Source: Candidatus Zixiibacteriota bacterium (GTDB lineage Bacteria > Zixibacteria > MSB-5A5 > GN15 > FEB-12). Taken from it: 64,000 nt of DNA. Below the pieces are notes generated by a model, which saw nothing but the letters and a program-made list of their open reading frames with translations, had not been told where the DNA came from and made no database searches. The stretch spans positions 1,554,311-1,618,310 of the forward strand of contig CP070756.1 in NCBI GenBank assembly GCA_020348905.1, given 5' to 3'. Below are positions 44,679 to 60,141 of the stretch, piece by piece. The position numbers and the translations under genes were made by a program. Numbering within the stretch: position 1 is the stretch's first letter; the number at the start of each line of letters is the position of its first letter.

Positions 44679-46256
44679 TTGTCAATAAGTAACGTACACA
44701 AAAAGTCCCTGCTCGGTTCAGCCGGTATTGTCTCCGGAGCAACTGCTTTTTCACGCGTATTGGGACTTATCCGCGAGCAGGTTATGGCCTATTTCTTTGG
44801 CGCCGGGATGGCCACCGACGCCTTTCTTACGGCATTCAGGATTCCGAATCTGCTGAGGGACATGTTTGCCGAGGGGGCGCTCTCGGCGGCATTCGTACCT
44901 GTGTTCAAGGAGAAGATGGTCAAACAGGGCGACGCGGATGCCTTCAAGCTGGCCGATGTTGTAATAACGGCCATACTTGTGGTGGTCGGTATAATTGTAC
45001 TTCTGGGTATAATCGCCGCCCCGGCAATAGTTTACATTTCAGCGAACGGATTTACCGAGATCCCGGAAAAATTCGCTTTGACCGTCAGTTTGACCCGGGT
45101 GATGATGATCTACCTGCTGCTGGTATCGCTCTCGGCGCTGGTGATGGGAATGCTCAACTCGTTCGGGCGCTTTGGCGTCCCGGCTCTTTCACCGGCGCTA
45201 TTCAATTTGGGCATTATCGTGACGGTGGTGATTCTGTATCGCTTCTTTGATCAGCCGGTGTATACGCTGGCTTTAGGGGTGCTCATCGGGGGCGCCGGCC
45301 AACTGTTTATTCAGCTGCCAGCCCTGCTCAAAATAGGCTTCAGATTCAAACCGATTTTCAATTTTCTCGATGAAGGCCTCAAGCGGGTTGTCAATCTTCT
45401 CATGCCGATGATTGTGGGCCTATCGGCCGGACGGATCAACATCCTGGTCAACACACTTCTCGCTTCATTTTTGATGCAGGGCTCGATCTCCTTTTTGAGT
45501 TACGCCTACCGCCTGATGCACTTTCCGCTGGGGGTTTTTGCCGTGGCCCTCGGAACGGTGGCGCTGCCGACGGTGTCGGAAATGGTCGCCCGGCGAGACA
45601 TGGACGGTCTTAAGCGTACTTTCGACCAGGCTATCAGTCTGAACCTCTTTGTTGTCATTCCGTCAGCAGTCTTTCTGGCCGTGATGGGACGGGAAGTGGT
45701 AGAGTTGATTTATACCTGGGGTGCTTTTTCCGAAGCTCACGCCGCAAACACCAGTCTGGCCCTGCTGCACTACTCCTACGGTCTGGTGGGCTTCGCTGCG
45801 GTAAGAGTGACGGTACCATTCTACTACGCCTTCAATGATTCGAAACTGCCTATGAAGGCCTCGGTCGTATCGGTCGTGGTGAACATGGCCCTTTACTACC
45901 CGCTTATCAAGGTGCTCGATTTTGCCGGTCTGGCGGCTGCGACCTCCATCGCCGGCTTGCTTAATTTTGCCATTCTGTTATATTACCTTCCTTCCAGGGG
46001 AGTCAGTTTTTCGCTGGGACGTTTCGGCTTGAATGTCTTCAGGATCAGTCTGGCGTCGCTTCTGGCCTTTTATGCCGCCAAGCTGTTTCCTGTCAGTTTA
46101 TATAGGGGAGATCTCAAGGTGCTTTCAAGATTAGAAGGATTACTTCTGCCGTTTGTTGTTGCCGCCATTGTTTATCTTGCGTTGTGCGCGGTGATGGGTG
46201 TCCGGGAGGTAAGGGATATCTCCCGAAAGCTGTTTAGAAGAACAACCGGCGGTTAA
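44679..46256 (+). CDS. murJ: Lipid II flippase MurJ (MviN)
   Basis: SRVLGLIREQVMAYFFGAGMATDAFLTAFRIPNLLRDMFAEGALSAAFVPVF and about 14 TM segments. TTG start. Confidence 0.9.
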   Translation: MSISNVHKKSLLGSAGIVSGATAFSRVLGLIREQVMAYFFGAGMATDAFLTAFRIPNLLRDMFAEGALSAAFVPVFKEKMVKQGDADAFKLADVVITAILVVVGIIVLLGIIAAPAIVYISANGFTEIPEKFALTVSLTRVMMIYLLLVSLSALVMGMLNSFGRFGVPALSPALFNLGIIVTVVILYRFFDQPVYTLALGVLIGGAGQLFIQLPALLKIGFRFKPIFNFLDEGLKRVVNLLMPMIVGLSAGRINILVNTLLASFLMQGSISFLSYAYRLMHFPLGVFAVALGTVALPTVSEMVARRDMDGLKRTFDQAISLNLFVVIPSAVFLAVMGREVVELIYTWGAFSEAHAANTSLALLHYSYGLVGFAAVRVTVPFYYAFNDSKLPMKASVVSVVVNMALYYPLIKVLDFAGLAAATSIAGLLNFAILLYYLPSRGVSFSLGRFGLNVFRISLASLLAFYAAKLFPVSLYRGDLKVLSRLEGLLLPFVVAAIVYLALCAVMGVREVRDISRKLFRRTTGG

Positions 46257-48532
46257 TGATTCGCAAGTTTCCTTCAGTATTCCTGCTGATTTTCATCGTA
46301 ACCGGAATTGTCATGGCTGATCAGAGCCGGTGGCCTTCCTGGTTGTTTCTATTGGTGTGTCTGGTCCCGTGTCTGGGGGGATTTCTTGCTCTTACGTCCC
46401 CGCGAAAGATGCTCGCCACCGTTTTGTTCTGTTTTTCGTTGCTGGGTTTCTCGGCCTTTCGCTTTGCGGCCGGCTTCTATGACGCGGGCCCTAATCACAT
46501 TTCCAGTTTCGACCTCCCAGGCGGCAGTTACCACATCTATGGTGAAGTTTCCGATTGGCCAGACCTTCGCTCTGATCGTACCGAATTCAAAATCGCTATA
46601 GACTCCATTGTAGATTCCCGCTGCCATCGCCTCATCGGGTTTATATTGCTCCGGGTGTCAGATACCACTACTGCTTTGCAGCGCGGCGATCGGGTCGAAT
46701 TCCATGGGAGAATATATCCGGTGAGACAACAAGTTTCTCCGGGCTCGTTCGATTACGGGCGACACCTCAATATGAGAGGCGTATTCGGTATCGTCTACGT
46801 ACCGACTCTTCTCGACGTCCGGGTAGACCGGCGAAACCGGTATGGCTTTTTATCGATGATCGATCGGTTGCGCGATGCCATCAGGGCCAGCCTTTACCAG
46901 AACCTCTCATCAAGCAGTGCCGCCCTGGCCTCGGGCTTTCTGATTGGCGAAACCAGGGATATTCCAATCGATGTGTATCAGCGGTTTCGTGACTCAGGCA
47001 CCCTTCATCTTCTGGCGGTATCGGGTTCCAATGTTGCCCTGATAGTGGTATTTTTTGTGTTTCTTCTCCGCCCTTTGAAGATTGACCCGACCAGGCGGGC
47101 TCTGGTGCTTCTGGCCGTGATCCTGATTTTCGCCTTTCTTTCATATGGCGAACCATCGGTCGTCAGAGCCTCGGTCATGGCCGGGCTGATTATCGTGGCC
47201 GGCCTGCTTCACCGGCGGCACAATCTGAACAACATAATCGCCACGGCTGCCGCCATCATTCTGCTGGTCGATCCCGCCCAGCTTTTTGATGTCGGTTTTC
47301 AGTTGTCCTTCTGTATCGCCTGGGGACTAATATTCATCGTTCCCCGTGTGACAGAGTTCTTCAAACCGGTTCAAAGTCGCTGGTGGTACCGGTGGCTGCT
47401 TTTTCCGCTTCTGATATCGGTGATCGCTCAGATCTGTTCGATGGGTTTGATCGCTTATTACTTCGACCGCGTCCCGCTTATTTCTCCTCTGGCTAACCTG
47501 GTGGTGGTTCCAATCGTGTCGGCAGCGGTGATCGGGACCCTGATCCTCCTGGTAGCTAATCTCATTCTGCCGGTCTTGGCTTTGTTTTTCGGAGCATGGC
47601 TGAACCTTCTTCTGGAGTGTGTGCTGAAGCTGGTGGAAACTTTTGGTAGCGACACGATGCCGGCGCTAAGCGTAGTGAACATGCCAATGTGGGTGAACCT
47701 GTTAATTTATGCTTACATCTTTCTGGCCGCCTGGTCACTCGGCAAGAAGTATGTCCGACGTCTGGTACTGATTTCGCTTCTGATGCTGGCCAATCTGATT
47801 CTGCTGGTTCATGTTTTCGACGATGGGGCGGCTTATGGTGAGGCCGAGGTAACCCTCTTTAGTATCCCCGGTGGTGCGGCGGCGGTAGTGAAGCGGTTGG
47901 GCGGAAATGATGCCGATCTGATCATAACCGGCATCAGAGGGCGTAATTATCCGGTCGATGAAAGGATAATCGGACCATGCCTGGACGAACTCGGGGTGGT
48001 CCGTCTCGGAACCGTGTTCGTCTTATCTGCTGAATTCGATGCCATAGACGATGTTTTACGTCTGACCCGGACTTACCCCGGGAGCCGCCTGTATGTGGAA
48101 CGGAGCGATGAACCGAGTTTCAAAGACGTCATCGCGTCTGATACCGCCGGTGACAGTGGCTCGTCAATTTTGACTTTTGGAGACACTGTCGCCGAATATG
48201 ATCGCAAGGGAGCTTACTACTGTCCGACCGGATGGGGTTTGCTTTTATCTGTGAACGGTTCGAAGGTGTTCTTTTGTGATTATGTTTTGCCGGCACACTT
48301 GAATGCTGACACGAAACTTGAGGGTGCCGTGCTGGTTGTGGGTCAGACCTGGCGTTCGACCGGCGAAGACCTCGCTGGCATCCGCCGCCGGGGTTTCAGT
48401 CAGATCGTCTGTTCAAAAATAGCACAGCCGCGCTACCACGAGGAATCTATGTTCGGGCATCAGCCTCCAAGAGCGCTTCCGGTGAATGTCTACGACCTGA
48501 GCCGGCGTGGCAGGCTAACGCTGAATCTGTAA
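46256..48532 (+). CDS. comEC: ComEC/Rec2-family DNA internalisation channel protein
   Basis: N-terminal TM/OB region, competence domain (FRDSGTLHLLAVSGSNVALI...SFCIAWGLI). The C-terminal domain lacks the MBL HxHxDH motif. The ATG overlaps the murJ stop (TAATG). Confidence 0.8.
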   Translation: MIRKFPSVFLLIFIVTGIVMADQSRWPSWLFLLVCLVPCLGGFLALTSPRKMLATVLFCFSLLGFSAFRFAAGFYDAGPNHISSFDLPGGSYHIYGEVSDWPDLRSDRTEFKIAIDSIVDSRCHRLIGFILLRVSDTTTALQRGDRVEFHGRIYPVRQQVSPGSFDYGRHLNMRGVFGIVYVPTLLDVRVDRRNRYGFLSMIDRLRDAIRASLYQNLSSSSAALASGFLIGETRDIPIDVYQRFRDSGTLHLLAVSGSNVALIVVFFVFLLRPLKIDPTRRALVLLAVILIFAFLSYGEPSVVRASVMAGLIIVAGLLHRRHNLNNIIATAAAIILLVDPAQLFDVGFQLSFCIAWGLIFIVPRVTEFFKPVQSRWWYRWLLFPLLISVIAQICSMGLIAYYFDRVPLISPLANLVVVPIVSAAVIGTLILLVANLILPVLALFFGAWLNLLLECVLKLVETFGSDTMPALSVVNMPMWVNLLIYAYIFLAAWSLGKKYVRRLVLISLLMLANLILLVHVFDDGAAYGEAEVTLFSIPGGAAAVVKRLGGNDADLIITGIRGRNYPVDERIIGPCLDELGVVRLGTVFVLSAEFDAIDDVLRLTRTYPGSRLYVERSDEPSFKDVIASDTAGDSGSSILTFGDTVAEYDRKGAYYCPTGWGLLLSVNGSKVFFCDYVLPAHLNADTKLEGAVLVVGQTWRSTGEDLAGIRRRGFSQIVCSKIAQPRYHEESMFGHQPPRALPVNVYDLSRRGRLTLNL

Positions 48533-48677: not shown

Positions 48678-49880
48678 ATGAGTTTAGCCGGTAACTTAAA
48701 AACAGTCTCGTTTCCGGACATCCTGCAGCTGCTGGCTACGGGAAAGAAGACTGGCATATTGGAAGTAAAGACTTCAACGCGCCAGAAGGAAGTTGCCTTC
48801 AAAGACGGTAACATCATCTATGCTTCTTCGGTCAATACCACCGAAGACCTGCTCGGCAATATGCTACTTCGGCGCGGAAAGATCACCAAGTCTGATCTTG
48901 ATCGAGCTATATCACTGCACAAGCAGACCGGGCGACAGCTTGGCACCACCCTGATAGACATGAATCTGTTCCAGAAGGAAGATATTGCAGAGTGTCTTCG
49001 GCTCCAGATAGAGGAAATTGTCTACAACCTGTTCTCCTGGCAGGAGGGAGATTTCGTATTTCATGAAGGCTCTTCGCCCAGCAACGTACCGTTCTTGATC
49101 GAACTGAACACCATGAATGTCATCATGGAGGGGACGCGGAGAATCGACGAATGGATGGAGATTCAGAAAGTCCTTCCGCCCGATGATGTGGTTCTGGCGC
49201 TGGCCAAGTCACCCAAGGTTGCCAAAGAGGATATTTCGATTTCGCTTGAAGAGTTTCGGATCATGGCCCTGATCAACGGTGAAAGGACCCTGCCCGATCT
49301 GATCAACATTTCGCCCATGGGTGAGTTCGTCACCTGCCGGGCGATCTACCGGCTCATTGTCGGCAACCTCATCGAGGTTGTGGGCCGCAGAGAAGACAGT
49401 CCCGAGGAAAAAGAGGATGAAGAAGAAGTCATTCTGGGTGTCCTGTTTCACCTGTACAACAACTGCTTTTTCAAAATCAGAAGTCTGGTAGAATCAGTCC
49501 TGGGAGAGAGTAACAGCCGCTTCGTGGATTTCACCTCGCAGTATCGTAGCGGCGTTTTTACCTTTTTCCCCGGCGTCGACCCGTCTTCGGAGTTGTGTCC
49601 ATCGTTCGACAAGTTCGTAGCCGCCGTCCGCGCCTTTCCGATTGAGACACGCTACCACAAACTGATGTCGGGCCTGGAAAACATGCTGGCCGAACAGCTT
49701 GAATATGTCTTTCAGCTTTTGGGAGTGGGTATTTACCGTGAGGCTGCGGTGCAGGTGAAAAAGGAGATTTCCGAACCACTGGCCGTACGAAGGGAAATGG
49801 TTAAGAGATATGGAATCGACGACAGTTTTTATAAAACGATGAAGAGAGCTGAAAAAGTCGTCAAAATGGTAAGAGGGTAA
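48678..49880 (+). CDS. PATAN/DUF4388-domain protein with a helical insertion
   Basis: N-terminal LAGNLKTVSFPDILQLLATGKKTGILEV...VAFKDGNIIYASS is the DUF4388 signature. An inserted helical repeat pair resembles GspE-N/MshEN helices. The C-terminal ~150 aa is unassigned. Confidence 0.7.
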   Translation: MSLAGNLKTVSFPDILQLLATGKKTGILEVKTSTRQKEVAFKDGNIIYASSVNTTEDLLGNMLLRRGKITKSDLDRAISLHKQTGRQLGTTLIDMNLFQKEDIAECLRLQIEEIVYNLFSWQEGDFVFHEGSSPSNVPFLIELNTMNVIMEGTRRIDEWMEIQKVLPPDDVVLALAKSPKVAKEDISISLEEFRIMALINGERTLPDLINISPMGEFVTCRAIYRLIVGNLIEVVGRREDSPEEKEDEEEVILGVLFHLYNNCFFKIRSLVESVLGESNSRFVDFTSQYRSGVFTFFPGVDPSSELCPSFDKFVAAVRAFPIETRYHKLMSGLENMLAEQLEYVFQLLGVGIYREAAVQVKKEISEPLAVRREMVKRYGIDDSFYKTMKRAEKVVKMVRG

Positions 49881-49882
49881 AG

Positions 49883-50245
49883 ATGAGAAAGATATTAGGA
49901 TTGAGTGTCCTGAGCATTCTGGCAACAAGCGGCGACGCGACGGCGGCGAATTTAGCCGTCATTACCAGCCCGCCAACAATGCTCAAGTTTGTGGTCTTCG
50001 GCGTTGCCATTGGATGCCTGGTCGGCTCGGTGAAGCTTCTGTCAGTCCTGAAGGGAGGACTGCTGTTTAAGAGTTGGCAGAATATCATGTTCGGATTCGG
50101 AGTCCTGGCCGTGTCGCAACTGGCCGCCCTGCTCAGTGATTTCGAAGTGGTTAACCTGCCCGACTTCGTTTCACCGGCTCTCTGGGTAGTTGTATGCGGG
50201 CTCTTCCTTTACGGAATCTTTGAGGCCAAGAGAACCCTGGACTGA
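49883..50245 (+). CDS. Small membrane protein (signal/anchor plus 3 TM segments)
   Basis: 120-aa hydrophobic ORF starting 2 nt after the previous stop. No known family. Confidence 0.55.
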   Translation: MRKILGLSVLSILATSGDATAANLAVITSPPTMLKFVVFGVAIGCLVGSVKLLSVLKGGLLFKSWQNIMFGFGVLAVSQLAALLSDFEVVNLPDFVSPALWVVVCGLFLYGIFEAKRTLD

Positions 50246-50348: not shown

Positions 50349-51209
50349 ATGATAAATGCTGTCGAAATAGACGAGCGAATTAGTAAGTGTCAGAAGATTT
50401 TGGACGTCGATCCAAACTCTCAAATCTTTGCCGCTCTGGCGGAAGCCTATCGTAAGAAGGGGGAGTTAGAGAAGGCTTTTCGCGTTTGCCAGAACGGTCT
50501 CAGAATTCATCCGTCTTACGGCTCGGCGCATGTTGTCATGGCCAAGATCAATCTTGACCGGCGCCTTTACGATTGGGCTGAAATCGAGGCCAGAAAGGCA
50601 TCCGAAATAGACGGTCTGACGCGGACTATCGAGCTGTTGCTGGCTGAAATATACATCTATAAGGGCGAATTCACGCAGGCCGTGAAACTGCTCAAGAAGC
50701 TCAACGAGGCTGATCCCAATAACGATCAGATCAAGAAACTGTTGGACATTGCTCAAAAGATACCCGAGGAGCAGACCCTGGTCATTGAGCAAGCGGCGCC
50801 GGAGCCGGGCGACGGGACAGGGCAAACCGACGAAGTCCCGGTGGCGGATGAACAAGCTACCCCGCAACGTTTGGGAGTCAGGGACGTGGTGGAGCAGGCG
50901 TTGAAGATAGGCGGGGTTCAGGGTGCGCTTCTGGTTAACTTTGAGGGTTTGATTGTAGACTCGGAATGGCGATTGTCTATGGATTCTTCGCTATGCAGCG
51001 CCACGCTGGGGGATGTTAGTAACCTGCTAAGTCAGGACCTGGTAAAAAGTTCTTTCGGAGACTTCTACACGGTACTAATCGAAGCTGCCAAGAACACTTT
51101 TTATCTGGTCCGCGTTCATAATGGTTTATTCCTGTTCGTTACCGATAGCAAGGCTAATCTGGGGACGATCAGAATGAAGGTTGAGAATTTGCTGATCTCG
51201 TATCAGTAA
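50349..51209 (+). CDS. TPR-repeat protein fused to a C-terminal Roadblock/LC7 (MglB-like) domain
   Basis: TPR helices at aa 20-135, an acidic/Pro linker, then VVEQALKIGGVQGALLVNFEGLIVDS...FYLVRVHNGLFLFVTDSKANLGTIRMKV, which follows the Roadblock pattern. Confidence 0.7.
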   Translation: MINAVEIDERISKCQKILDVDPNSQIFAALAEAYRKKGELEKAFRVCQNGLRIHPSYGSAHVVMAKINLDRRLYDWAEIEARKASEIDGLTRTIELLLAEIYIYKGEFTQAVKLLKKLNEADPNNDQIKKLLDIAQKIPEEQTLVIEQAAPEPGDGTGQTDEVPVADEQATPQRLGVRDVVEQALKIGGVQGALLVNFEGLIVDSEWRLSMDSSLCSATLGDVSNLLSQDLVKSSFGDFYTVLIEAAKNTFYLVRVHNGLFLFVTDSKANLGTIRMKVENLLISYQ

Positions 51210-51226
51210 ACAATAAAGGACAACTT

Positions 51227-52201
51227 ATGGAAATAAGCGGACGCATATCAAGGCAGATTCTGCTCCTATCGTTGCTGGTACTGCTGGTTTCGATGCTGAT
51301 ATTTCCTAAGAGATATGGGACGAATCTTGCCGACGCTCCTTTGATTTATGTCGTGGTTGAACTGGTTTTCTATGGATTCGTGATTTACCTGTTTAATAGA
51401 AGCCTCACCCCGCTGCAGCTGGTATCTTCGGCCGGTCTGTGCCTGATTTACCGATTTGCTCTTGGAGCAGCTCTTGGTATCGGCATCGTTGTCGTCTATC
51501 AGTGGCAGTTCAAAACAGCCCTGATAGCAGGCATGGGAAGTTATCTTCCGGGAATGCTGCTTCAAATAGTGGCGGCGCCTTTTATTCTGAAACCGGCTAT
51601 TGACGTTCTTTACGGTGGGCAGCCCAAGGCCAAACCGAAAGCTCCACCGAAACCCCAGAGTGCCTCCACCGATTCCTTAACCTCTATTGCCGCCTCGAAG
51701 AAGAAAGGTTACAGCCAGACGGGCCCGGCTTCGGTGGCCGAAGTGTTCGGGCCAGATGCGGCTTCGAGCCAGACCGGTTCCGTGGCCTCGACCGCCACCG
51801 AAGACAACGGATTCGACCGGGCCACCAGGTACATAGGCGAGGATGGATCGGTCCTGGTGGCAGCTGTAGTTGATGTTGATGGTTTACTGTTGGGCAATTT
51901 CAGCCGGCGGGGCGTCGATGCCGAGGACTGGGCTCCCTTCGCGCTGACTTTGGTGGAACAGAATCGGCAAGTGGTGACCCGGCTCGATCTGGATAAACCT
52001 GAAAAGATCGACATTGTACTCAACGACAAGAAAGTAATCGTTGCCTGCGAAGAGGCTTACTCGCTGATGGTCGTCGCCGACCGGGCAACCGATGATGTTC
52101 TTAATATTCGAATTAATCAGGGGCTTGAAATAATCAGAAAATATGTAGCTGAACGATATAGCGAAGAGCTTATCGGGAAGGTGGAGAAGACTTATGTATG
52201 A
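51227..52201 (+). CDS. Membrane-anchored (about 4 TM) protein with a C-terminal Roadblock/LC7 domain
   Basis: Hydrophobic N-terminal 125 aa, a Lys/Pro/Ser linker, then YIGEDGSVLVAAVVDVDGLLLGNF...KKVIVACEEAYSLMVVADRATDDVLNIRI. Confidence 0.7.
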   Translation: MEISGRISRQILLLSLLVLLVSMLIFPKRYGTNLADAPLIYVVVELVFYGFVIYLFNRSLTPLQLVSSAGLCLIYRFALGAALGIGIVVVYQWQFKTALIAGMGSYLPGMLLQIVAAPFILKPAIDVLYGGQPKAKPKAPPKPQSASTDSLTSIAASKKKGYSQTGPASVAEVFGPDAASSQTGSVASTATEDNGFDRATRYIGEDGSVLVAAVVDVDGLLLGNFSRRGVDAEDWAPFALTLVEQNRQVVTRLDLDKPEKIDIVLNDKKVIVACEEAYSLMVVADRATDDVLNIRINQGLEIIRKYVAERYSEELIGKVEKTYV

Positions 52202-52535
52202 CGTGTTGGACGGCTTGAACAAAACCACCGGTGTAACCGGGTCTATGGTGGTGGGAAATGACGGTATCGTCATTGCCGCCAATCTCGATGAATCGTTCGA
52301 GGGCGAGGCGATAGGTGCTCTGGCAGCGTCAATTACGACCAATATTCAGAAGTCACTTGACCGGCTGGAGTCGACGCCGCTGAAGCAGGTAACGATTGAA
52401 GCAGAGGAAGGAAAGCTATTTTTCACCGATGCCGGTCTGGGTATTCTGGTGGTGACCACCGAAAAGCAGGTGAATATCGGTTTGATTCGGCTGGAAATCA
52501 AGAATGCTATCAGTAAACTCAAAATAGCAGGGTAA
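52194..52535 (+). CDS. Stand-alone Roadblock/LC7 domain protein (MglC-like size)
   Basis: 113 aa: LNKTTGVTGSMVVGNDGIVIAANL...EEGKLFFTDAGLGILVVTTEKQVNIGLIRLEI. The start overlaps the upstream stop (ATGTATGA). Confidence 0.8.
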   Translation: MYDVLDGLNKTTGVTGSMVVGNDGIVIAANLDESFEGEAIGALAASITTNIQKSLDRLESTPLKQVTIEAEEGKLFFTDAGLGILVVTTEKQVNIGLIRLEIKNAISKLKIAG

Positions 52536-52564: not shown

Positions 52565-53656
52565 ATGGTTTCAATAAACTATTCATCGCGGGAAGTCTGT
52601 TGTAAGATTGTCTATTACGGTCCTGGTCTGTCCGGCAAGACGACCAATCTGCTTTACGTCCACTCTAAGGTACCCTCGGATACGCGCGGTAAGATGATTT
52701 CTCTGGCAACGGAAGCCGACCGAACCCTGTACTTCGACTTTCTGCCGATAAACATTGGCACGATTAACGGCTTTGCCGCCAAATTCCAGCTATACACCGT
52801 ACCCGGTCAGGTTTACTATAATGCGACCAGGAAACTGGTGCTGCGCGGCGTGGACGGAGTCGTATTCGTGGCCGACAGTCAGCCCGATAAGATGGAAGAA
52901 AACATCGAATCATTGGTCAACCTCGAGGAAAACCTCAGGGAATACGGTTATGATATCAATGATCTTCCCATGGTTATCCAGTATAACAAACGGGATCTTC
53001 CGGGGGTGATGGCGGTAGATGAACTCAACACCCGTCTCAATACACGGAATTTGCCTCATTTCGAGGCGTCGGCTACGATCGGTAACGGAGTATTCGACAC
53101 GCTCAAGTTGATAATCAAGCTGGTGCTGGAGAAGGCCAAGCGAAGTGCCACCGATCGAGCTCGACCGGATGTGAGTTATTCGGAGCCGGCCGCCGAGGCG
53201 CCTGTGCCGACTCCGGTTCAGCAGGAGCCGGATGAGGTTCCGTCAGCACCGTCAGAGCCGGCCGCACCGGAGCGGGTGCCGGTCGAACCATCACCGGTGA
53301 CAGCCGAGGCAGAGCCCGGCGGGCAGGCGGCGCGATCGACCGGGCCTATAAGTGTGGCACAGGCCGAACCCGTGGCCGAGGCTCCGGCGGAGCAGCCCGA
53401 ACCGTCCAGGTATCGTCCGTATCCGGGCGGTGAAAATCCGGAGGAATTGGACAAGAAGATTTCATCTGCAAGCTTTACACCTACCCGGCGGGAAGAAGCG
53501 GATGACAATGCGCCGGCCGCGGAAGTAGCCGGACTTAAGACCGGCCAGGACAGCGAAAGCGCCGACCTGTCCCGACCGGCAATGGCTCCTTCACTCAAGC
53601 GCCGCGGCGACAAGAAGAAGCGCGGTTTCTTTAAACGTTTGTTCGGTATTAAATAG
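52565..53656 (+). CDS. mglA: MglA-type Ras-like small GTPase with a ~170-aa disordered C-terminal extension ending in an amphipathic basic tail
   Basis: The first ~192 aa are near-collinear with Myxococcus MglA as I recall it (INYSSRE..CKIVYYGPGLSGKTTNL, DRTLYFDFLP, YTVPGQVYY, QYNKRDL). The tail is P/A/E-rich and ends KKKRGFFKRLFGIK. Confidence 0.9.
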   Translation: MVSINYSSREVCCKIVYYGPGLSGKTTNLLYVHSKVPSDTRGKMISLATEADRTLYFDFLPINIGTINGFAAKFQLYTVPGQVYYNATRKLVLRGVDGVVFVADSQPDKMEENIESLVNLEENLREYGYDINDLPMVIQYNKRDLPGVMAVDELNTRLNTRNLPHFEASATIGNGVFDTLKLIIKLVLEKAKRSATDRARPDVSYSEPAAEAPVPTPVQQEPDEVPSAPSEPAAPERVPVEPSPVTAEAEPGGQAARSTGPISVAQAEPVAEAPAEQPEPSRYRPYPGGENPEELDKKISSASFTPTRREEADDNAPAAEVAGLKTGQDSESADLSRPAMAPSLKRRGDKKKRGFFKRLFGIK

Positions 53657-53673
53657 TCATCCAGGAGGCTGAA

Positions 53674-54165
53674 ATGGCTGATAATAGTCTGATAATCTAT
53701 GAAGAAGAGATTAACCAAATCGACTCGTTGATTTCTAAGATGCTCAAAGGGGCCGAGGCAAAGTGCGCTCTCCTTGTCGACAAGGATGGTCACCTTATCA
53801 CCCGTCAGGGATTCACTCACTCCCTTGACACAACCGCTCTGGCCGCCCTGCTGGCAGGGTCATTCGCATCGACCAAGGAAATCGCACGGCTGGTCGGTGA
53901 GCCGGAGTTCTCGGTGCTGTTCCACCAGGGCAAGAAAGACCATATCCATATGTCGCTGGTCGGAGATCGGTCCATCCTCGTGGTCATATTCGATGACCGT
54001 ACGACGATCGGGATGGTGCGTTTGTATGCCAAGGAGACAGCGATCGAGTTGGGCAAGATCTTCGAGAAGATCAAAGAGCAGTCCGCCGATAAACCCAAGG
54101 CTGGCATTACCAGTGATTTCGCCAGTAAGGCTGAAGACAAGCTCGACGATATCTTCCAGGATTAG
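53674..54165 (+). CDS. mglB: MglB-type Roadblock/LC7 GTPase-activating protein
   Basis: YEEEINQIDSLI...ALLVDKDGHLITRQG...DTTALAALLAG...FHQGKKDHIHMSLVG...VVIFDDRTTIGMVRLYAKE plus an acidic C-tail, collinear with Myxococcus MglB as I recall it. AGGAGG SD. Confidence 0.85.
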   Translation: MADNSLIIYEEEINQIDSLISKMLKGAEAKCALLVDKDGHLITRQGFTHSLDTTALAALLAGSFASTKEIARLVGEPEFSVLFHQGKKDHIHMSLVGDRSILVVIFDDRTTIGMVRLYAKETAIELGKIFEKIKEQSADKPKAGITSDFASKAEDKLDDIFQD

Positions 54166-54227: not shown

Positions 54228-55928
54228 ATGTCTTCTGAACTTAGTGCGATGCTGGTCAAGGCCGGCAAAATCACGCCGGAGCAAGCTGAAAAAGCTCTGG
54301 CCATGGTCAAAGAGAAGGGCGAGAATTTTGAGCAGGCCTTGATAAAGGTCGGTGCCGCCGACTCAGAAGATGACATTGCCAAGTTTATCGGCAAGCACCT
54401 GAAAATCGGAGCCCTGCGTCTCTCCGACGTCGAACTCAACCCGGACATTGTAAAGCTGATTCCGCTCGATATCGCACGCAAATTCAAAGTCGTCGCGGTA
54501 TCCAAACTCAACAAGACTCTGCTGGTAGCCATCAGTGATCCCAACAATATTTATGTCCTCGATGCCATAAAGTTCATCACGGGATGTACCGTGCAGCCGG
54601 TTATATCTCCCGAGAAGGCAATCGAAAAGGCTATTGAGACCTACTATACCAATGCCGACGGTCTCTCGGAGTTGGTCCGCGGTCTGGAAGAGGATTCGGA
54701 TCTGGAAGTAGTCTCCGACGAGGAAACGCCCAGCGAATCGGACCTCCTCTCGCAGATTCAGGACAAGCCGCTGGTCAAGCTCGTCGATTCTATTATTGCC
54801 GACGCCATTCGTATAGGGGCGTCCGATATTCATTTCGAAATGTATGAAAAACGAATCCGGGTGCGATATCGTGTTGACGGTGACCTGCGAGAGATGGCAC
54901 CGCTGCCGTTTAAGTATCGGGCCGCCATTGTATCGCGTATCAAGATTATGGCCGAACTGGATATTTCCGAGCGTCGTCTGCCGCAGGACGGCCGCATCAA
55001 GATTAAGATTGCCGGGCGAACGGTCGACCTTCGTGTCTCGGTCCTGCCGACCATATTCGGCGAGAAGGTGGTTATGCGTATTCTGGACCCGATGGCTCTG
55101 ATGGTGGACATGACCAAGCTGGGGTTCAGGGAAGATGACCTGAAAAAGTTCAACGAAAAAATCCATCTGCCCTACGGCATTATTCTGGTCACCGGGCCGA
55201 CCGGTTCGGGTAAAACGACCACCCTTTATTCGGCTCTGAAGCAGATCAATACCGTTGATGTCAATATCATGACTGCCGAGGACCCGGTCGAGTTCAACTT
55301 CGACGGCATCAATCAGGTGGCCGTCAAGTCCGACATCGGCATGACCTTCGCCGCCTCACTTCGTTCCTTCCTTCGTCAGGACCCTGACATCATAATGGTT
55401 GGTGAGATTCGTGACGGCGAAACGGCCGAGATCGCCATCCGAGCCGCCCTGACGGGTCACCTGGTGTTTTCGACCCTGCACACCAACGACGCCCCCTCAT
55501 CGATTAACCGGCTTATCGACATGGGTGTACCTCACTACCTGGTTGCTTCGGCTACGAAGATGATTATGGCTCAGCGAATGATGCGCAAGATTTGCCAGAG
55601 CTGCAAAGAAGAGGTCAACCTCACCCAGGAACAGGTTGAAAGCCTTGGTGTTACCAAAGACATACTGCGCAATATCAGGGCTTTTCGGGGAGTGGGCTGC
55701 AGTGACTGCAATGACACCGGCATGTCGGGTCGAACCGGTATCTATGAGGTTATGCCTATAACATCCGAAATGGAGGCACACATTCTTTCCAGGTCGACCG
55801 ATACAGAGATCCGTGAGACGGCCCTGAAACAGGGCATGTACAGCCTTCGGATGGCCGCCGTCGATAAAATGAAGCAGGGCATAGTTTCTATCGATGAGGT
55901 CTTCTCGGTGACCTCTGCCGGCTCCTGA
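54228..55928 (+). CDS. pilB: Type IV pilus assembly ATPase PilB (GspE family)
   Basis: N-terminal T2SSE_N helices, Walker A GPTGSGKTTTLYS, Asp/His boxes and the tetracysteine CQSC...CSDC. Confidence 0.9.
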   Translation: MSSELSAMLVKAGKITPEQAEKALAMVKEKGENFEQALIKVGAADSEDDIAKFIGKHLKIGALRLSDVELNPDIVKLIPLDIARKFKVVAVSKLNKTLLVAISDPNNIYVLDAIKFITGCTVQPVISPEKAIEKAIETYYTNADGLSELVRGLEEDSDLEVVSDEETPSESDLLSQIQDKPLVKLVDSIIADAIRIGASDIHFEMYEKRIRVRYRVDGDLREMAPLPFKYRAAIVSRIKIMAELDISERRLPQDGRIKIKIAGRTVDLRVSVLPTIFGEKVVMRILDPMALMVDMTKLGFREDDLKKFNEKIHLPYGIILVTGPTGSGKTTTLYSALKQINTVDVNIMTAEDPVEFNFDGINQVAVKSDIGMTFAASLRSFLRQDPDIIMVGEIRDGETAEIAIRAALTGHLVFSTLHTNDAPSSINRLIDMGVPHYLVASATKMIMAQRMMRKICQSCKEEVNLTQEQVESLGVTKDILRNIRAFRGVGCSDCNDTGMSGRTGIYEVMPITSEMEAHILSRSTDTEIRETALKQGMYSLRMAAVDKMKQGIVSIDEVFSVTSAGS

Positions 55929-56077: not shown

Positions 56078-57151
56078 ATGGTATCCCTGCGTGAACTGTT
56101 GGAGCAGATGGTTAAGATGGGTGCCTCCGACTTGCATCTTACGGTGGGTTCTCCACCGGTTGTACGGGTGGATGGCAAGTTGCAGAGGCTGGATCACGAC
56201 ATCCTGACCAGTGAACAGACCAAGAAAATTTCATACTCCATGCTCAACGAGAAGCAGAAGCAGAAATTTGAGCAGAACTCCGAACTTGACTTCTCGTTCG
56301 GAATCGAGCAAATGAGCCGTTTCAGATGCAACATGTTCATGCAGCGCGGAAATGTTGCGGTTGCTCTTCGCCAGATTCCTTACAAGATAATGTCGTTCGA
56401 AGAGCTTGGTCTTCCCAAAGTGGTGGCCGACTTCTCCAAGCTGCCGCGCGGGCTGGTGCTCGTTACCGGTCCGACCGGTTCAGGTAAGTCGACGACACTG
56501 GCGTCGATCATCGATAAAATCAATCGTGAGCGCCCGGTCCATATAATCACCGTCGAAGATCCGATCGAGTACCTGCATCGTCATCAGCAGGCGTTGATTA
56601 ACCAGCGAGAGGTATACTCCGACACGACTTCGTTTGCGGCGGCTCTGAAGTACGCCCTGCGTGAGGATCCGGATGTGGTTCTGATAGGCGAGATGCGTGA
56701 TCTGGAGACAATCGAGGCGGCCCTGTCGATATCGGAAACGGGACACCTGGCTTTTGCCACCCTCCACACCAACTCGGCCTCGGAGTCGATCAACCGTATT
56801 ATTGACGCTTTTCCCACCAATCAGCAGGAGCAGATACGGATTTCGCTGTCGTTCACTCTGCAGGCTATCCTGTCACAGACCCTGATTCCCAAGATAGGCG
56901 GCGGACGGGTGCTGTCGATGGAGATCCTGGTTGTCACGCCCGCCATCAGGGCCCTGATTCGCGACGACAAGGTCCATCAGATCTACTCCATGATTCAATC
57001 GGGACAGAAGTTCGGTATGAAGACGATGAATCAATCGCTGTCTGAATTGTATCAGACGGGAAAGATTACAATAAACGATGCTATGAGCTACAGTCACAAT
57101 CCTCAGGAGTTGAGCGAATCGTTGTCGAAACAGAAAACTGCGGCTTTTTAG
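56078..57151 (+). CDS. pilT: Type IV pilus retraction ATPase PilT
   Basis: GASDLHL, GPTGSGKSTTLAS, the AALREDPDV-like region ALREDPDVVLIGEMRD, and GHLAFATLHTNSA. Confidence 0.95.
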   Translation: MVSLRELLEQMVKMGASDLHLTVGSPPVVRVDGKLQRLDHDILTSEQTKKISYSMLNEKQKQKFEQNSELDFSFGIEQMSRFRCNMFMQRGNVAVALRQIPYKIMSFEELGLPKVVADFSKLPRGLVLVTGPTGSGKSTTLASIIDKINRERPVHIITVEDPIEYLHRHQQALINQREVYSDTTSFAAALKYALREDPDVVLIGEMRDLETIEAALSISETGHLAFATLHTNSASESINRIIDAFPTNQQEQIRISLSFTLQAILSQTLIPKIGGGRVLSMEILVVTPAIRALIRDDKVHQIYSMIQSGQKFGMKTMNQSLSELYQTGKITINDAMSYSHNPQELSESLSKQKTAAF

Positions 57152-57180: not shown

Positions 57181-58380
57181 GTGCCAGTTTTTGAATATAA
57201 AGGTAAGACTCTCGCCGGCGCCGCTGTTAAAGGCGAGCTTAAGGCTAACAGTCGAGCCGACCTGGAGCGTGTCCTCCGGCAAAACCGGATTATGGTGACG
57301 TCAATCACCAAGAAGGCGCCGGAGATACAAATCAAAATCGGCACCGGTGTCAAGCGAATCGAGGTTTCTCGGTTCACCCGGCAGTTCGCCACCATGATCG
57401 GCGCCGGGCTACCGATGGTGCAGTGTCTGGACATTCTCGCCACGCAGATGGAAAATAAGGAGTTGGCCAAGATCGTTCAGCAGGTGAAGGATTCCGTGCA
57501 GGGTGGCGCTACCCTGTCGGAGGCCCTGGCGCGCCATCCCAAAATATTCGACCAGCTGTATACCAACATGGTTGAGGCCGGTGAGGTAGGCGGTGCTCTC
57601 GACGCTATTCTAAACCGACTGGCTCTCTATCGGGAAAAAGCCGACCGGCTGGTCCGCAAGGTTAAAGGCGCCATGGTCTATCCGTCGGTGGTTTGTGTCG
57701 TGGCGATAGCCGTTACAATCGGTATGCTGGCTTTTATCGTGCCGGTGTTCGCCAAGATGTTTGGAGGCCTGGGAGCGGAATTGCCGAAACCGACTCAGGT
57801 CGTACTGGGAATATCAAACTTCCTGAAAAGCAATATCGGGACAATAATATTCGGCACCCTGGGCGGCCTGGGAATTTTCATATGGTGGAAACGGACGCCA
57901 TCGGGTGCGCTGCTCTGGGACAGATTCCTGCTTTCCTCGCCGATACTGGGAAACCTCATAAGAAAATCGTCGATTGCCCGTTTCACGCGTACCCTGGGCA
58001 CGCTGCTGGCATCGGGTGTCTCCATCCTGGAAGCGCTGGAGATAACCGCCAAGACCGCCGGCAACCTGATCGTGGCTAACGCGATTAACAAGTCGGTGCT
58101 TTCGATCGCCGAGGGTGATACCATTACCAGTCCTTTGAAGGAGACCGGTGTATTCCCTCCGATGGTAACCCAGATGATAGCGGTCGGTGAAAAGACCGGC
58201 GGCCTTGACGAGATGCTCAACAAGATCGCCGATTTCTACGATGAGGAGGTCGACGAGGCGGTATCCGCCCTGACATCGGTTATCGAGCCGATCATCATCG
58301 TGGTTATGGGTGTCGTTATCGGTGGCATCCTGATCGCCATGTACCTGCCGATGTTCGACATCATTGGCAAGATTGGATGA
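57181..58380 (+). CDS. pilC: Type IV pilus platform protein PilC (GspF family)
   Basis: Duplicated GspF domains (FTRQFATMIGAGLPMVQCL / FTRTLGTLLASGVSILEAL) and 3 TM segments. GTG start. Confidence 0.9.
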   Translation: MPVFEYKGKTLAGAAVKGELKANSRADLERVLRQNRIMVTSITKKAPEIQIKIGTGVKRIEVSRFTRQFATMIGAGLPMVQCLDILATQMENKELAKIVQQVKDSVQGGATLSEALARHPKIFDQLYTNMVEAGEVGGALDAILNRLALYREKADRLVRKVKGAMVYPSVVCVVAIAVTIGMLAFIVPVFAKMFGGLGAELPKPTQVVLGISNFLKSNIGTIIFGTLGGLGIFIWWKRTPSGALLWDRFLLSSPILGNLIRKSSIARFTRTLGTLLASGVSILEALEITAKTAGNLIVANAINKSVLSIAEGDTITSPLKETGVFPPMVTQMIAVGEKTGGLDEMLNKIADFYDEEVDEAVSALTSVIEPIIIVVMGVVIGGILIAMYLPMFDIIGKIG

Positions 58381-58437: not shown

Positions 58438-60141
58438 ATGTATAGCAGAGAGGTTCTCAACAAGATCGGATGGTTCCTGCCGCTGAGACTGGCACAATAT
58501 ATTGTGCTGTTCGCAGTGGTGGTGTTCTGGATGGGCTACCCGCGGTTCATGCAGCCGCAGTTCGTCTTGTACTCCATCTGTACGCTCGGTTTTGCGGTGC
58601 TGATGGCGGCCGGTCGAAAGCACCGGTTGAAGAACGTCACAGCCACCATAATCGGTCTGCAGTTTCTGTTCGAGATTGTTCTGGAATCAAGCATCATTTA
58701 CTCGACCGGAAATGTCAATTCGCCGTTCTCCGCGCTGTTTATTCTCACTATCGTTTCCGCCGCCCTTACCTATCGCCTTCTGGGCACGCTGGTGACAGCA
58801 TCGCTGGTATCGGTCGCGTATGCCTTCATCATCTGGTTGGGACTGTCAAGGGGTCAGGATTACGAAATATCGATGCGAACCCTCAAAACCATCTTCTCCT
58901 CGGGTGACAGCGCTTTCTACTCGATATTTCTTCATATTCTCATCTTCTACCTGGTGGCGTTTATATCGGGTTACCTGGCCGAACGCCTCAAGGAGCGCGA
59001 TCGCCAGTTGGCTGACACTTCGCTGGCGCTGAAGAAGGCGAAACTTGAAACCGACGACATCCTCAGACATCTTAACTCCGGGCTTCTGACCGTCGACGCC
59101 AAGGGAATCGTCATATTTTTTAATCGGGCCGCCGAAAGGATACTGGGTTACCGCGAAGAAGACGTCAAAGGTATGCACTGTCGGGAAGCGTTCTCGCAAC
59201 GAATGCCCGAGCTGGCCAGCCGCCTGATGGACGGGATAGAACATCGCCTGGAGCACCCACGGGTCGAAATTGAAATCGTCGGGGCCGAAGGCGCCGTTGT
59301 CCCGCTGGGACTGTCGACATCGATTCTGACCGAGGAGGGCCTGGGGATGAGGGGGATTATTGCCATCTTTTCGGATCTCACCGAAGCAAAGCGCCTTGAA
59401 GCGAAAATGAGGACGGCCGACAGGCTGGCCGTGGTTGGCGAACTGTCCGCCTCGATTGCACACGAAATACGCAATCCGCTCGCGGCTATTTCCGGTTCGG
59501 TGGAGGTGCTCAAGAATGACCTGAAAGTCTCCGATGAAAATGAGCGGCTGATGAACCTGATCGTGAAAGAGTCTGACCGGCTAACGAAAATTCTTACCGA
59601 GTTTCTTTTATATGCCAGGATCGACCGTACCGCTTACAACAAGGTTGAACTCTGTCACCTGGTAGGCGAAGTGATTGAAATGCTTTACCATAATCGGTCG
59701 CTTGAATCAAGAGTCGATTTCAGGGTAGAGTCGGATGAGTCCATAATCTACGTGGTAGGCGACGAAGACCTGATCAAGCAACTGCTGCTGAATCTGGCTG
59801 TCAACGCCTGCGAATCATTCGAAGACATGGACGGCCAGGTCACTTTTCGTCTGACTGTCAATCATCCGGAAAACCGGGTGGAGTTGCGTGTTCAGGACAA
59901 CGGGCCCGGTATCCCGGCCGACAACATCAAGAAGATATACCAGCCGTTCTTTTCGACCAAGAAGGAGGGGACGGGCCTGGGGCTTTCCATTGTTCACCGC
60001 ATCTGCTCAGCTCTCAAGCTGAGGATGGAAGTATTGTCTGAAGAAGGTGTTGGCACCACCTTTGTGGTCGAATTTGACACTTTCGTTCAGGAAACGCCGT
60101 CGCCGGTCGAATCAATCCCCCCATCGTGCGGCAGCCACTGA
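58438..60141 (+). CDS. Membrane sensor histidine kinase, PilS-like architecture (multi-TM, PAS, HisKA, HATPase)
   Basis: About 6 N-terminal TM segments, PAS (LLTVDAKGIVIFFNRAAERILGY), H-box SASIAHEIRNPL, and N/G boxes (DNGPGIP, GTGLGLSIV). Confidence 0.8.
   Translation: MYSREVLNKIGWFLPLRLAQYIVLFAVVVFWMGYPRFMQPQFVLYSICTLGFAVLMAAGRKHRLKNVTATIIGLQFLFEIVLESSIIYSTGNVNSPFSALFILTIVSAALTYRLLGTLVTASLVSVAYAFIIWLGLSRGQDYEISMRTLKTIFSSGDSAFYSIFLHILIFYLVAFISGYLAERLKERDRQLADTSLALKKAKLETDDILRHLNSGLLTVDAKGIVIFFNRAAERILGYREEDVKGMHCREAFSQRMPELASRLMDGIEHRLEHPRVEIEIVGAEGAVVPLGLSTSILTEEGLGMRGIIAIFSDLTEAKRLEAKMRTADRLAVVGELSASIAHEIRNPLAAISGSVEVLKNDLKVSDENERLMNLIVKESDRLTKILTEFLLYARIDRTAYNKVELCHLVGEVIEMLYHNRSLESRVDFRVESDESIIYVVGDEDLIKQLLLNLAVNACESFEDMDGQVTFRLTVNHPENRVELRVQDNGPGIPADNIKKIYQPFFSTKKEGTGLGLSIVHRICSALKLRMEVLSEEGVGTTFVVEFDTFVQETPSPVESIPPSCGSH

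Follow-up and report, generated by a model that had tools for sequence, protein, structure and literature searches.

A long-tailed MglA GTPase of Zixibacteria ends in a conserved MinD-like peptide that may anchor it to the membrane

Introduction

MglA is the model for bacterial front-rear polarity, in which it acts as a soluble switch positioned solely by protein partners. The canonical proteins of Myxococcus xanthus and Thermus thermophilus are soluble, have one domain of ~195 amino acids (aa), and are recruited to the cell poles by partners such as RomR/RomX. Here, we analyze a stretch of 64,000 nucleotides (nt) from Candidatus Zixiibacteriota bacterium (contig CP070756.1, positions 1,554,311 to 1,618,310; hereafter, the window), which encodes an MglA in which this domain is followed by a ~170-aa tail that bears three linear motifs and may anchor the protein to the membrane. 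As in M. xanthus, the gene cluster in the window links MglA to the type IV pilus motor, while the Zixibacteria operon differs from canonical MglA systems in having three extra Roadblock proteins, among them a predicted membrane-integral one.

The end of the tail resembles the C-terminal membrane-targeting sequence (MTS) of the cell division protein MinD, with which it shares its extreme C-terminal place and residue pattern, and to which it is similar in hydrophobic moment. However, the MinD sequence sits on a ParA/MinD deviant Walker-A ATPase, whereas the MglA peptide is carried by a Ras-superfamily GTPase, ~145 disordered residues away from the fold. The MglA peptide is preceded by a basic run (+9), where MinD has an acidic EEE. 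MinD also gains avidity from nucleotide-dependent dimerization with two anchors, and there is no sign of such dimerization for the tailed MglA. Because the carrier is a Ras-like GTPase, we treat the likeness to MinD as an analogy of motifs and not as membership in the MinD family.

Among eukaryotic GTPases, Ras/Rho/Rit proteins such as K-Ras4B and Rit have a G domain, a disordered hypervariable region (HVR), and a polybasic membrane-binding end, in the same order as in the tailed MglA. Rit-type proteins bind membranes without lipidation, through basic and aromatic residues. In length, the MglA linker exceeds a Ras HVR roughly seven- to tenfold, the protein has no CaaX box, and the tailed MglA plan is of independent bacterial origin relative to the HVR of Ras/Rho. 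Asgard archaeal Arf-like GTPases (PMC11914678) are prokaryotic small GTPases with a membrane-binding amphipathic element, as is predicted here; however, the Arf helix is N-terminal, lies beside the fold, and is coupled to the GTP switch, whereas in MglA the element lies at the C-terminus, with the long linker between it and the switch. The Arf and MglA clades are also distinct (PMC11914678). A preliminary description of this DNA had compared the tail to the anchors of both Ras and Arf GTPases; the Ras comparison holds for the C-terminal HVR of Ras/Rho/Rit, while the Arf comparison fails on the N-terminal position of the Arf helix. The tailed MglA is laid out like FtsZ, whose folded GTPase domain is followed by a linker that is variable and disordered and then by a short, conserved peptide at the end through which the protein is attached to the membrane. 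The two GTPase folds are unrelated, and FtsZ depends on FtsA or ZipA for its indirect contact with the membrane, whereas the MglA peptide resembles, by sequence, a direct lipid binder.

A complete MglA core with an in-frame tail

The tailed mglA is an open reading frame (ORF) at 52565..53656 on the + strand, which encodes 363 aa from an ATG start, is free of internal stops, and has its stop codon at 53654-53656. We divide it into the following parts:

52565..53140, + strand: MglA GTPase core, aa 1-192 (PDB MglA matches, motif positions, Pfam Arf/Ras)
53141..53575, + strand: hypervariable disordered P/A/E/S-rich linker, aa 193-337 (conservation, AlphaFold2, charge and length statistics)
53411..53431, + strand: [YF]RP[YF]PG[SG] island within the linker, Y283-R-P-Y-P-G-G289 (conservation)
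53576..53605, + strand: PxMAPSL[RK]RR island, P338-R347, start of the basic terminal module (conservation)
53615..53653, + strand: putative MinD-like terminal MTS, K351-K-R-G-F-F-K-R-L-F-G-I-K363 (conservation, MinD comparison)

In its catalytic part, the protein is a complete group-1-type MglA, with the mglB gene for its GTPase-activating protein (GAP) next to it. In PDB searches, residues 3-194 aligned end to end with M. xanthus MglA (5ymx, 6h17, 6hjh; E ~1e-80) and with T. thermophilus MglA (3t12; E 7e-70). The G domain is ~70% identical to that of M. xanthus MglA and has the same P-loop, arginine finger, TxPGQ, and NKxD, with mglB directly downstream. The P-loop (GxxxxGK[ST]) is G19PGLSGKT26, aligned with GPGLCGKT of M. 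xanthus, and the intrinsic arginine finger of switch I (M. xanthus R53) lies in D52-R53-T54, aligned with TDRTLFFDF. The MglA-type G3 motif, TxPGQ, with Thr for the usual Asp and the catalytic Gln, is T78-V-P-G-Q82; the G4 and G5 motifs are N141KRD144 and S169AT171. That Thr78 stands for the conserved Asp in MglA is stated in an earlier study (PMC3000849).

The crystallized MglA chains (5ymx, 6h17, 6hjh, 3t12) are 195-203 aa long and tail-less, which agrees with the preliminary description that canonical MglA has no such tail. Its reading that the frame continues past a ~192-aa core also proved correct: the tail runs from nt 53141 (aa 193) and comprises 171 residues. At 363 aa, the protein exceeds the 150-240 aa size limit that Wuichet & Sogaard-Andersen (2014) set for single-domain MglA, a point that concerns architecture and not the homology of the G domain.

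Although the core is ~70% identical to solved MglA structures, AlphaFold2 (AF2) gave aa 19-60 and 77-92, which cover the P-loop, switch I, and switch II, a predicted local distance difference test (pLDDT) score <50, probably because the alignment was narrow and because this region is known to switch conformation. In addition, JGI labels many tailed MglA (P0001, P0004, P0005, and others) as "signal recognition particle receptor subunit beta," which is probably a mis-annotation via generic small-GTPase similarity.

The terminal peptide resembles the MinD membrane-targeting sequence

The protein terminates in KKKRGFFKRLFGIK, and the longer 21-aa string SLKRRGDKKKRGFFKRLFGIK occupies 53591-53653. 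The preliminary description gave the ending correctly and placed it at 53597-53653, a trivial 6-nt slip. In the E. coli K-12 genome (NC_000913.3), the MinD C-terminus is EEKKGFLKRLFGG, also read as RFIEEEKKGFLKRLFGG and EEEKKGFLKRLFGG. The KKRGFFKRLFGIK end of MglA and the KKGFLKRLFGG end of E. coli MinD both fit K-[KR]-G-F-[FL]-K-R-L-F-G at the extreme C-terminus; over ten aligned positions, eight are identical and two are conservative changes. The resemblance to MinD given in the preliminary description is thus borne out against minD as read from the genome. The KGFLKRLFGG sequence serves experimentally as a transplantable membrane tag (PMC5471200).

Within the family, G354, L359, and G361 are invariant, and F355, F356, K357, R358, and F360 are each kept in at least 114 of 121 sequences. 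The hydrophobic moment of the MglA end is 0.33-0.49 vs. 0.41-0.55 for MinD, and its Wimley-White interfacial hydrophobic contribution is -4.26 kcal/mol, where the MTS of E. coli MinD has -3.38 kcal/mol. The net charge over the last 26 residues is +9 vs. +1 in E. coli MinD.

In a six-frame scan of the window plus 81 loci, only mglA carried the MinD-like ending, along with the E. coli minD control; the scanned sequence thus gives no hint of a signal common to several proteins. No Cys occurs in the last 30 residues, and the protein terminus is FGIK, so there is no CaaX or Cys lipidation signal. A PDB search with the last 27 aa returned only chance matches (E ~1), with MinD absent, presumably because the deposited chains are tail-less or the query was too short.

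The tail is conserved across Zixibacteria

We assessed conservation in two samples: the top 120 protein clusters, which have 53-98% identity and a length of 320-379 aa, and a set of one genome per species in which 80 loci were retained. The tail and its ending are kept in all 120 clusters, as MAPSL[RK]RR followed after two residues by KKRGFFKRLFGI[KR], or as variants that differ by one or a few residues. Likewise, in each of the 80 loci, core and tail share one frame, the product is 311-399 aa long, and the terminal motif is there; it fits the strict pattern in 73 and is one or two residues off in seven. Thus, orthologs keep the terminal motif, as the preliminary description had asked of a real anchor, and the feature goes beyond chance. 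The same frame and ending recur in ~200 independent assemblies, including the closed chromosomes of metagenome-assembled genomes (MAGs) CP070674, CP070777, CP070824, and OY760907. Nearly all of the records are Candidatus Zixiibacteriota or GN15; some third-party annotation MAGs are labeled Ignavibacteriales or Calditrichota.

These data bear on the frameshift or fusion artifact near 53140 raised in the preliminary description; here, a frameshift or read-through would have joined an mglA of normal length (195 aa) to sequence that is foreign or non-coding. Several features of the tail would fit such an artifact: its GC content is 0.637, above the 0.497 of the core, it is of low complexity, and a shadow ORF of 200 aa lies on the opposite strand. 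However, GC at third codon positions (GC3) is equal in core (0.625) and tail (0.614), so the GC excess of the tail reflects its amino-acid composition. Among 81 sequences, the last 13 codons have an entropy of 0.33 bits at position 1, 0.16 at position 2, and 1.34 at position 3, which is the pattern of a translated frame, and every synonymous codon for Arg, Gly, and Leu occurs there. Because third positions vary freely, selection acts on the peptide and not on a signal in DNA or RNA for mglB, which lies downstream. Together with the frame, similar length, and terminal motif kept throughout both samples and in closed chromosomes, this excludes a frameshift or fusion, and we regard the artifact as refuted, with practically no probability left to it.

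The opposite-strand ORF (53218-53820, - strand) overlaps both the tail and the beginning of mglB. The codon-position entropy fits the + frame and argues against a gene here; the ORF probably arises as a shadow of the GC-rich, Pro/Ala-rich coding sequence.

The linker is disordered but carries conserved islands

Residues 195-363 (169 aa) include 26 A, 26 P, 20 E, and 15 S. The mean frequency of the commonest residue falls from 0.90 in the core to 0.32 in the linker and returns to 0.78 over the last 28 residues. In the window protein, the linker (aa 195-337) has a net charge of -16, against the strongly basic last 26 residues. The same division is found across the family, where the linker is 94-182 aa long (median 140), consists to 71% of P/A/E/S/G/T/Q, and has a negative net charge in 106 of the 125 sequences parsed, while the terminal module has 24-32 aa and a charge of +5 to +11 (median +9; +6 or more in 124 of the 125). 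AF2, run with a 75-sequence alignment, gave the tail a pLDDT of 38-59 with a short helix at 356-360 as the sole secondary structure; this full-length model is of low confidence in the tail and in parts of the core, and we use it as support for disorder only.

The preliminary description had pictured the tail as a flexible leash. Its disorder is upheld by the low pLDDT and the low linker conservation, but the linker is not featureless. In the RP[YF]PG island, R284, P285, P287, and G288 are invariant in 121 of 121 sequences, and a semi-conserved [KR]K-I-S..F..P stretch follows on its C-terminal side at aa 297-306. A related [RKQ]P[YF]xG motif occurs in 17 of 150 other long MglA tails vs. 2.7 +/- 1.6 in shuffled tails, and in some of these it forms the very C-terminus. 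The RP[YF]PG island is probably a binding site for a conserved partner; docking of the island was not predicted in the full-length AF2 model. We considered an association of [RKQ]P[YF]xG with PATAN-domain neighbors and rejected it, as the association was not clean.

The PxMAPSL island opens the basic module and is nearly as constant (P338 and P342 each in 119 of 121 sequences, M340 in 118, and R347 in 113). Variants of the form PxM[AQ]xS[LI][KR] are seen in the more distant representatives P0123, P0124, P0127, P0134, P0138, and P0150. A match of aa 189-328 to NCBIfam GltJ (E 1.3e-3) was rejected, since it is far below the family cut-off and falls in the proline-rich low-complexity stretch.

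Long-tailed MglA in other bacteria

An exhaustive HMMER search of 1.84 billion representatives yielded 6,797 relatives, 2,405 of them with E <=1e-30, and we classified the best 150. All of these (P0121-P0269) are long (255-717 aa) and have C-terminal extensions, and 140 retain all four MglA motifs. About 50 of the 150 end in basic amphipathic peptides, some of which are even nearer to MinD than the Zixibacteria ending (KKRGFFSRLFGG, KKKGLLSRLFGGG, and KKKGFFDGLFKRDK, each at the C-terminus). Another 18-19 end in a hydrophobic transmembrane (TM) helix, i.e., a tail-anchor. A further ~50 end in a beta-rich segment of alternating hydrophobic and charged residues (GVVLKLRIxV; e.g., P0231, P0240, P0242, and P0262); in this class of 440-600 aa, the segment has no Pfam match. 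A few end in an acidic D[IL][KQ]PFxGVD, and there are single fusions to a flagellar C-ring FliN domain (P0174; PF01052, E 6e-23) and to TPR repeats (P0222). Through such extensions, MglA may thus be sent to different machineries of the cell.

Three of the TM-ended proteins occur in operons similar to that of the window. P0155 and P0166 lie in the order TPR-Roadblock, Roadblock, MglA-TM, and then MglB, while the P0192 operon has a TPR protein, Roadblock, and MglA-TM, with mglB not downstream. A separate membrane-Roadblock gene is absent from the three TM-ended loci examined (L083, L091, and L092). That a TM helix takes the place of the amphipathic end in similar operons is the strongest indirect evidence for the C-terminus as a membrane anchor.

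The standard classification of MglA excluded proteins of >240 aa, which dropped 39 of 488 members of the MglA subclade (Wuichet & Sogaard-Andersen 2014; PMC4316618). The tailed class is missing from that classification because of this cut-off, and our literature search found no paper that describes such MglA tails. The Zixibacteria proteins are apparently part of a much larger, undescribed class of C-terminally anchored MglA. Going further, we see an even chance that long-tailed MglA form a large, overlooked bacterial class built on the eukaryotic plan, with a G domain, a motif-bearing disordered linker, and a C-terminal anchor. Judging from sequence, the anchor may be either a MinD-type polybasic amphipathic peptide, as in all Zixibacteria examined, or a tail-anchor TM helix. 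Full-length scoring favors long low-complexity tails, so the class proportions above are not frequencies within the MglA family.

A probable reversible membrane anchor and the alternatives

Altogether, these analyses make it quite probable that the C-terminal module is a reversible peripheral anchor that tethers the MglA polarity GTPase to the cytoplasmic membrane. As far as sequence analysis goes, the reading of the preliminary description is supported, and each of its refuting conditions that could be checked by computation was decided in its favor. In the mechanism that we propose, the aromatic and aliphatic face F355/F356/L359/F360/I362 would insert into the lipid interface, with the RRR...KKKR run engaging anionic head groups. 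Repulsion between the membrane and the acidic linker would leave the G domain free to range ~10 nm from the surface, while the RP[YF]PG and PxMAPSL islands would bind partner proteins. MglA would then cycle between GTP and GDP on or near the inner membrane, at the pilus motor. The long linker would uncouple the anchor from the switch regions, a design like the HVR and polybasic anchor of Ras/Rho/Rit and unlike the switch-coupled N-terminal helix of Arf.

Several points weigh against this reading. MglA is monomeric in known structures. The hydrophobic moment of the last 11 residues (0.49) is equaled by 24% of shuffles, and the AF2 helix at 356-360 has a pLDDT <60; since such a moment is common among shuffles, the argument for an anchor rests on MinD similarity and conservation and not on amphipathicity statistics. 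The two further invariant islands in the tail suggest that protein contacts are also selected and that the terminal peptide itself might dock. Finally, a single E. coli MinD MTS is reportedly too weak to keep GFP on the membrane (Szeto 2003, cited in PMC13537761), and MinD depends on dimerization (PMC13537761). Given this weakness of a lone MTS, the adjoining +9 polybasic run is probably an essential part of the anchor. The extra charge may suffice for single-copy binding, or binding may be weak and reliant on avidity from partner complexes.

The same observations can be read as a docking peptide, in which the KKRGFFKRLFGIK end would bind a protein (the membrane Roadblock, TPR-Roadblock, PATAN, or PilB/PilT) in the manner of FtsZ, and not lipid. 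The FtsZ architecture of folded domain, variable linker, and conserved terminal peptide is matched, the two other invariant islands point to selected contacts between peptide and partner, and the operon offers several candidate partners, including TPR, a typical peptide-binding fold. The non-significant moment and the weakness of a single E. coli MinD MTS would also sit well with docking. However, the end has eight of ten residues in common with an experimentally lipid-binding sequence and is embedded in the +9 run. In addition, the tails of relatives end in TM helices or in varied basic-aromatic peptides that are alike in composition and not in sequence, as is expected for lipid and not for a specific protein pocket. 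Altogether, we consider a docking peptide improbable. With a charge of +9 in 26 residues, the module would bind any polyanion, and the acidic linker could fold back on the basic end, so that binding to nucleoid DNA, RNA, or polyphosphate, or an autoinhibitory or degradation signal, could also be proposed. But F355, F356, L359, and F360 are conserved like the basic positions and are not required for DNA binding, the TM-helix ends of homologs indicate a membrane, and the operon codes for inner-membrane pilus machinery; we judge this family of explanations very unlikely. A membrane anchor is thus our preferred reading of the terminal module.

The tailed mglA lies in a conserved pilus-motor operon

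The genes around mglA are as follows:

48678..49880, + strand: PATAN (DUF4388/PatA_N) protein, head of the cluster (Pfam DUF4388, E 1e-35)
49883..50245, + strand: small ORF with hydrophobic segments, 120 aa (hydropathy scan)
50349..51209, + strand: protein with N-terminal TPR and C-terminal Roadblock (Pfam TPR_14/TPR_19, weak Robl_LC7)
51227..52201, + strand: predicted integral-membrane Roadblock protein (hydropathy scan; weak Robl_LC7, E 1.4e-3)
52194..52535, + strand: stand-alone Roadblock/LC7 protein, 113 aa (Pfam Robl_LC7, E 1e-13; in 80 of 80 loci)
53674..54165, + strand: mglB, Roadblock-fold GAP partner (M. xanthus MglB 6izw_B, E 8e-40; Pfam Robl_LC7)
54228..55928, + strand: PilB, MshEN + T2SSE, type IV pilus motor ATPase (Pfam)
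56078..57151, + strand: PilT, type IV pilus motor ATPase (Pfam)
57181..58380, + strand: PilC platform protein (Pfam T2SSF)
58438..60141, + strand: PilS-like histidine kinase (Pfam 6TM_PilS + PAS + HisKA + HATPase_c)

The mglB gene starts 17 nt past the mglA stop with its own AGGAGG ribosome-binding site, and the two genes are coupled in all 80 loci. The TPR-Roadblock gene is present in 72 of the 80, the remainder being cut by contig ends. The membrane-Roadblock protein, found in 78 loci, has ~four N-terminal hydrophobic segments (aa 3-128), continues with a linker rich in K and P, and ends in a Roadblock-like domain. It is reminiscent of membrane-anchored Roadblock scaffolds such as Ragulator.

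The order mglA-mglB-pilB-pilT is kept in 73-77 of the 80 loci, and 67 have the complete order of TPR-Roadblock, TM-Roadblock, Roadblock, mglA, mglB, pilB, and pilT; the other 13 show no rearrangement and are apparently cut by contig ends. The divergent relative P0121 has an identical 14-gene order, and in the divergent relative L084, PATAN and the small hydrophobic ORF stand ahead of the Roadblock genes, as in the window. Because this gene order is kept across loci and in P0121, the cluster is a pilus-motor polarity module. PATAN neighbors of mglA/mglB have been noted earlier (PMC4316618). Upstream of the cluster, positions 44679-48532 encode the lipid II flippase MurJ and a competence protein of the ComEC type (DUF4131 + Competence), a pair that also precedes the cluster in L084.

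Implications for MglA biology

An MglA with a MinD-like polybasic end, whose anchoring role we infer, and which is conserved across a phylum, is an unexpected architecture for the field. If the anchor is real, a membrane-tethered MglA would diffuse in two dimensions and act beside the pilus motor, and polarization by cycling between membrane and cytosol would be possible, as in the eukaryotic Cdc42, Rho, and Ras systems. The natural peptide of 13-26 aa is a candidate single-copy membrane tag, and the invariant RP[YF]PG motif is an entry point to new partners of MglA.

If the long-tailed class also holds, small-GTPase polarity that is held at the membrane and uses Roadblock-fold regulators would be a bacterial or convergent invention and not specific to eukaryotes. 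The same plan is seen in many uncultured lineages, with putative anchors that are either amphipathic or TM, and a sizeable part of bacterial small-GTPase biology may remain unexplored.

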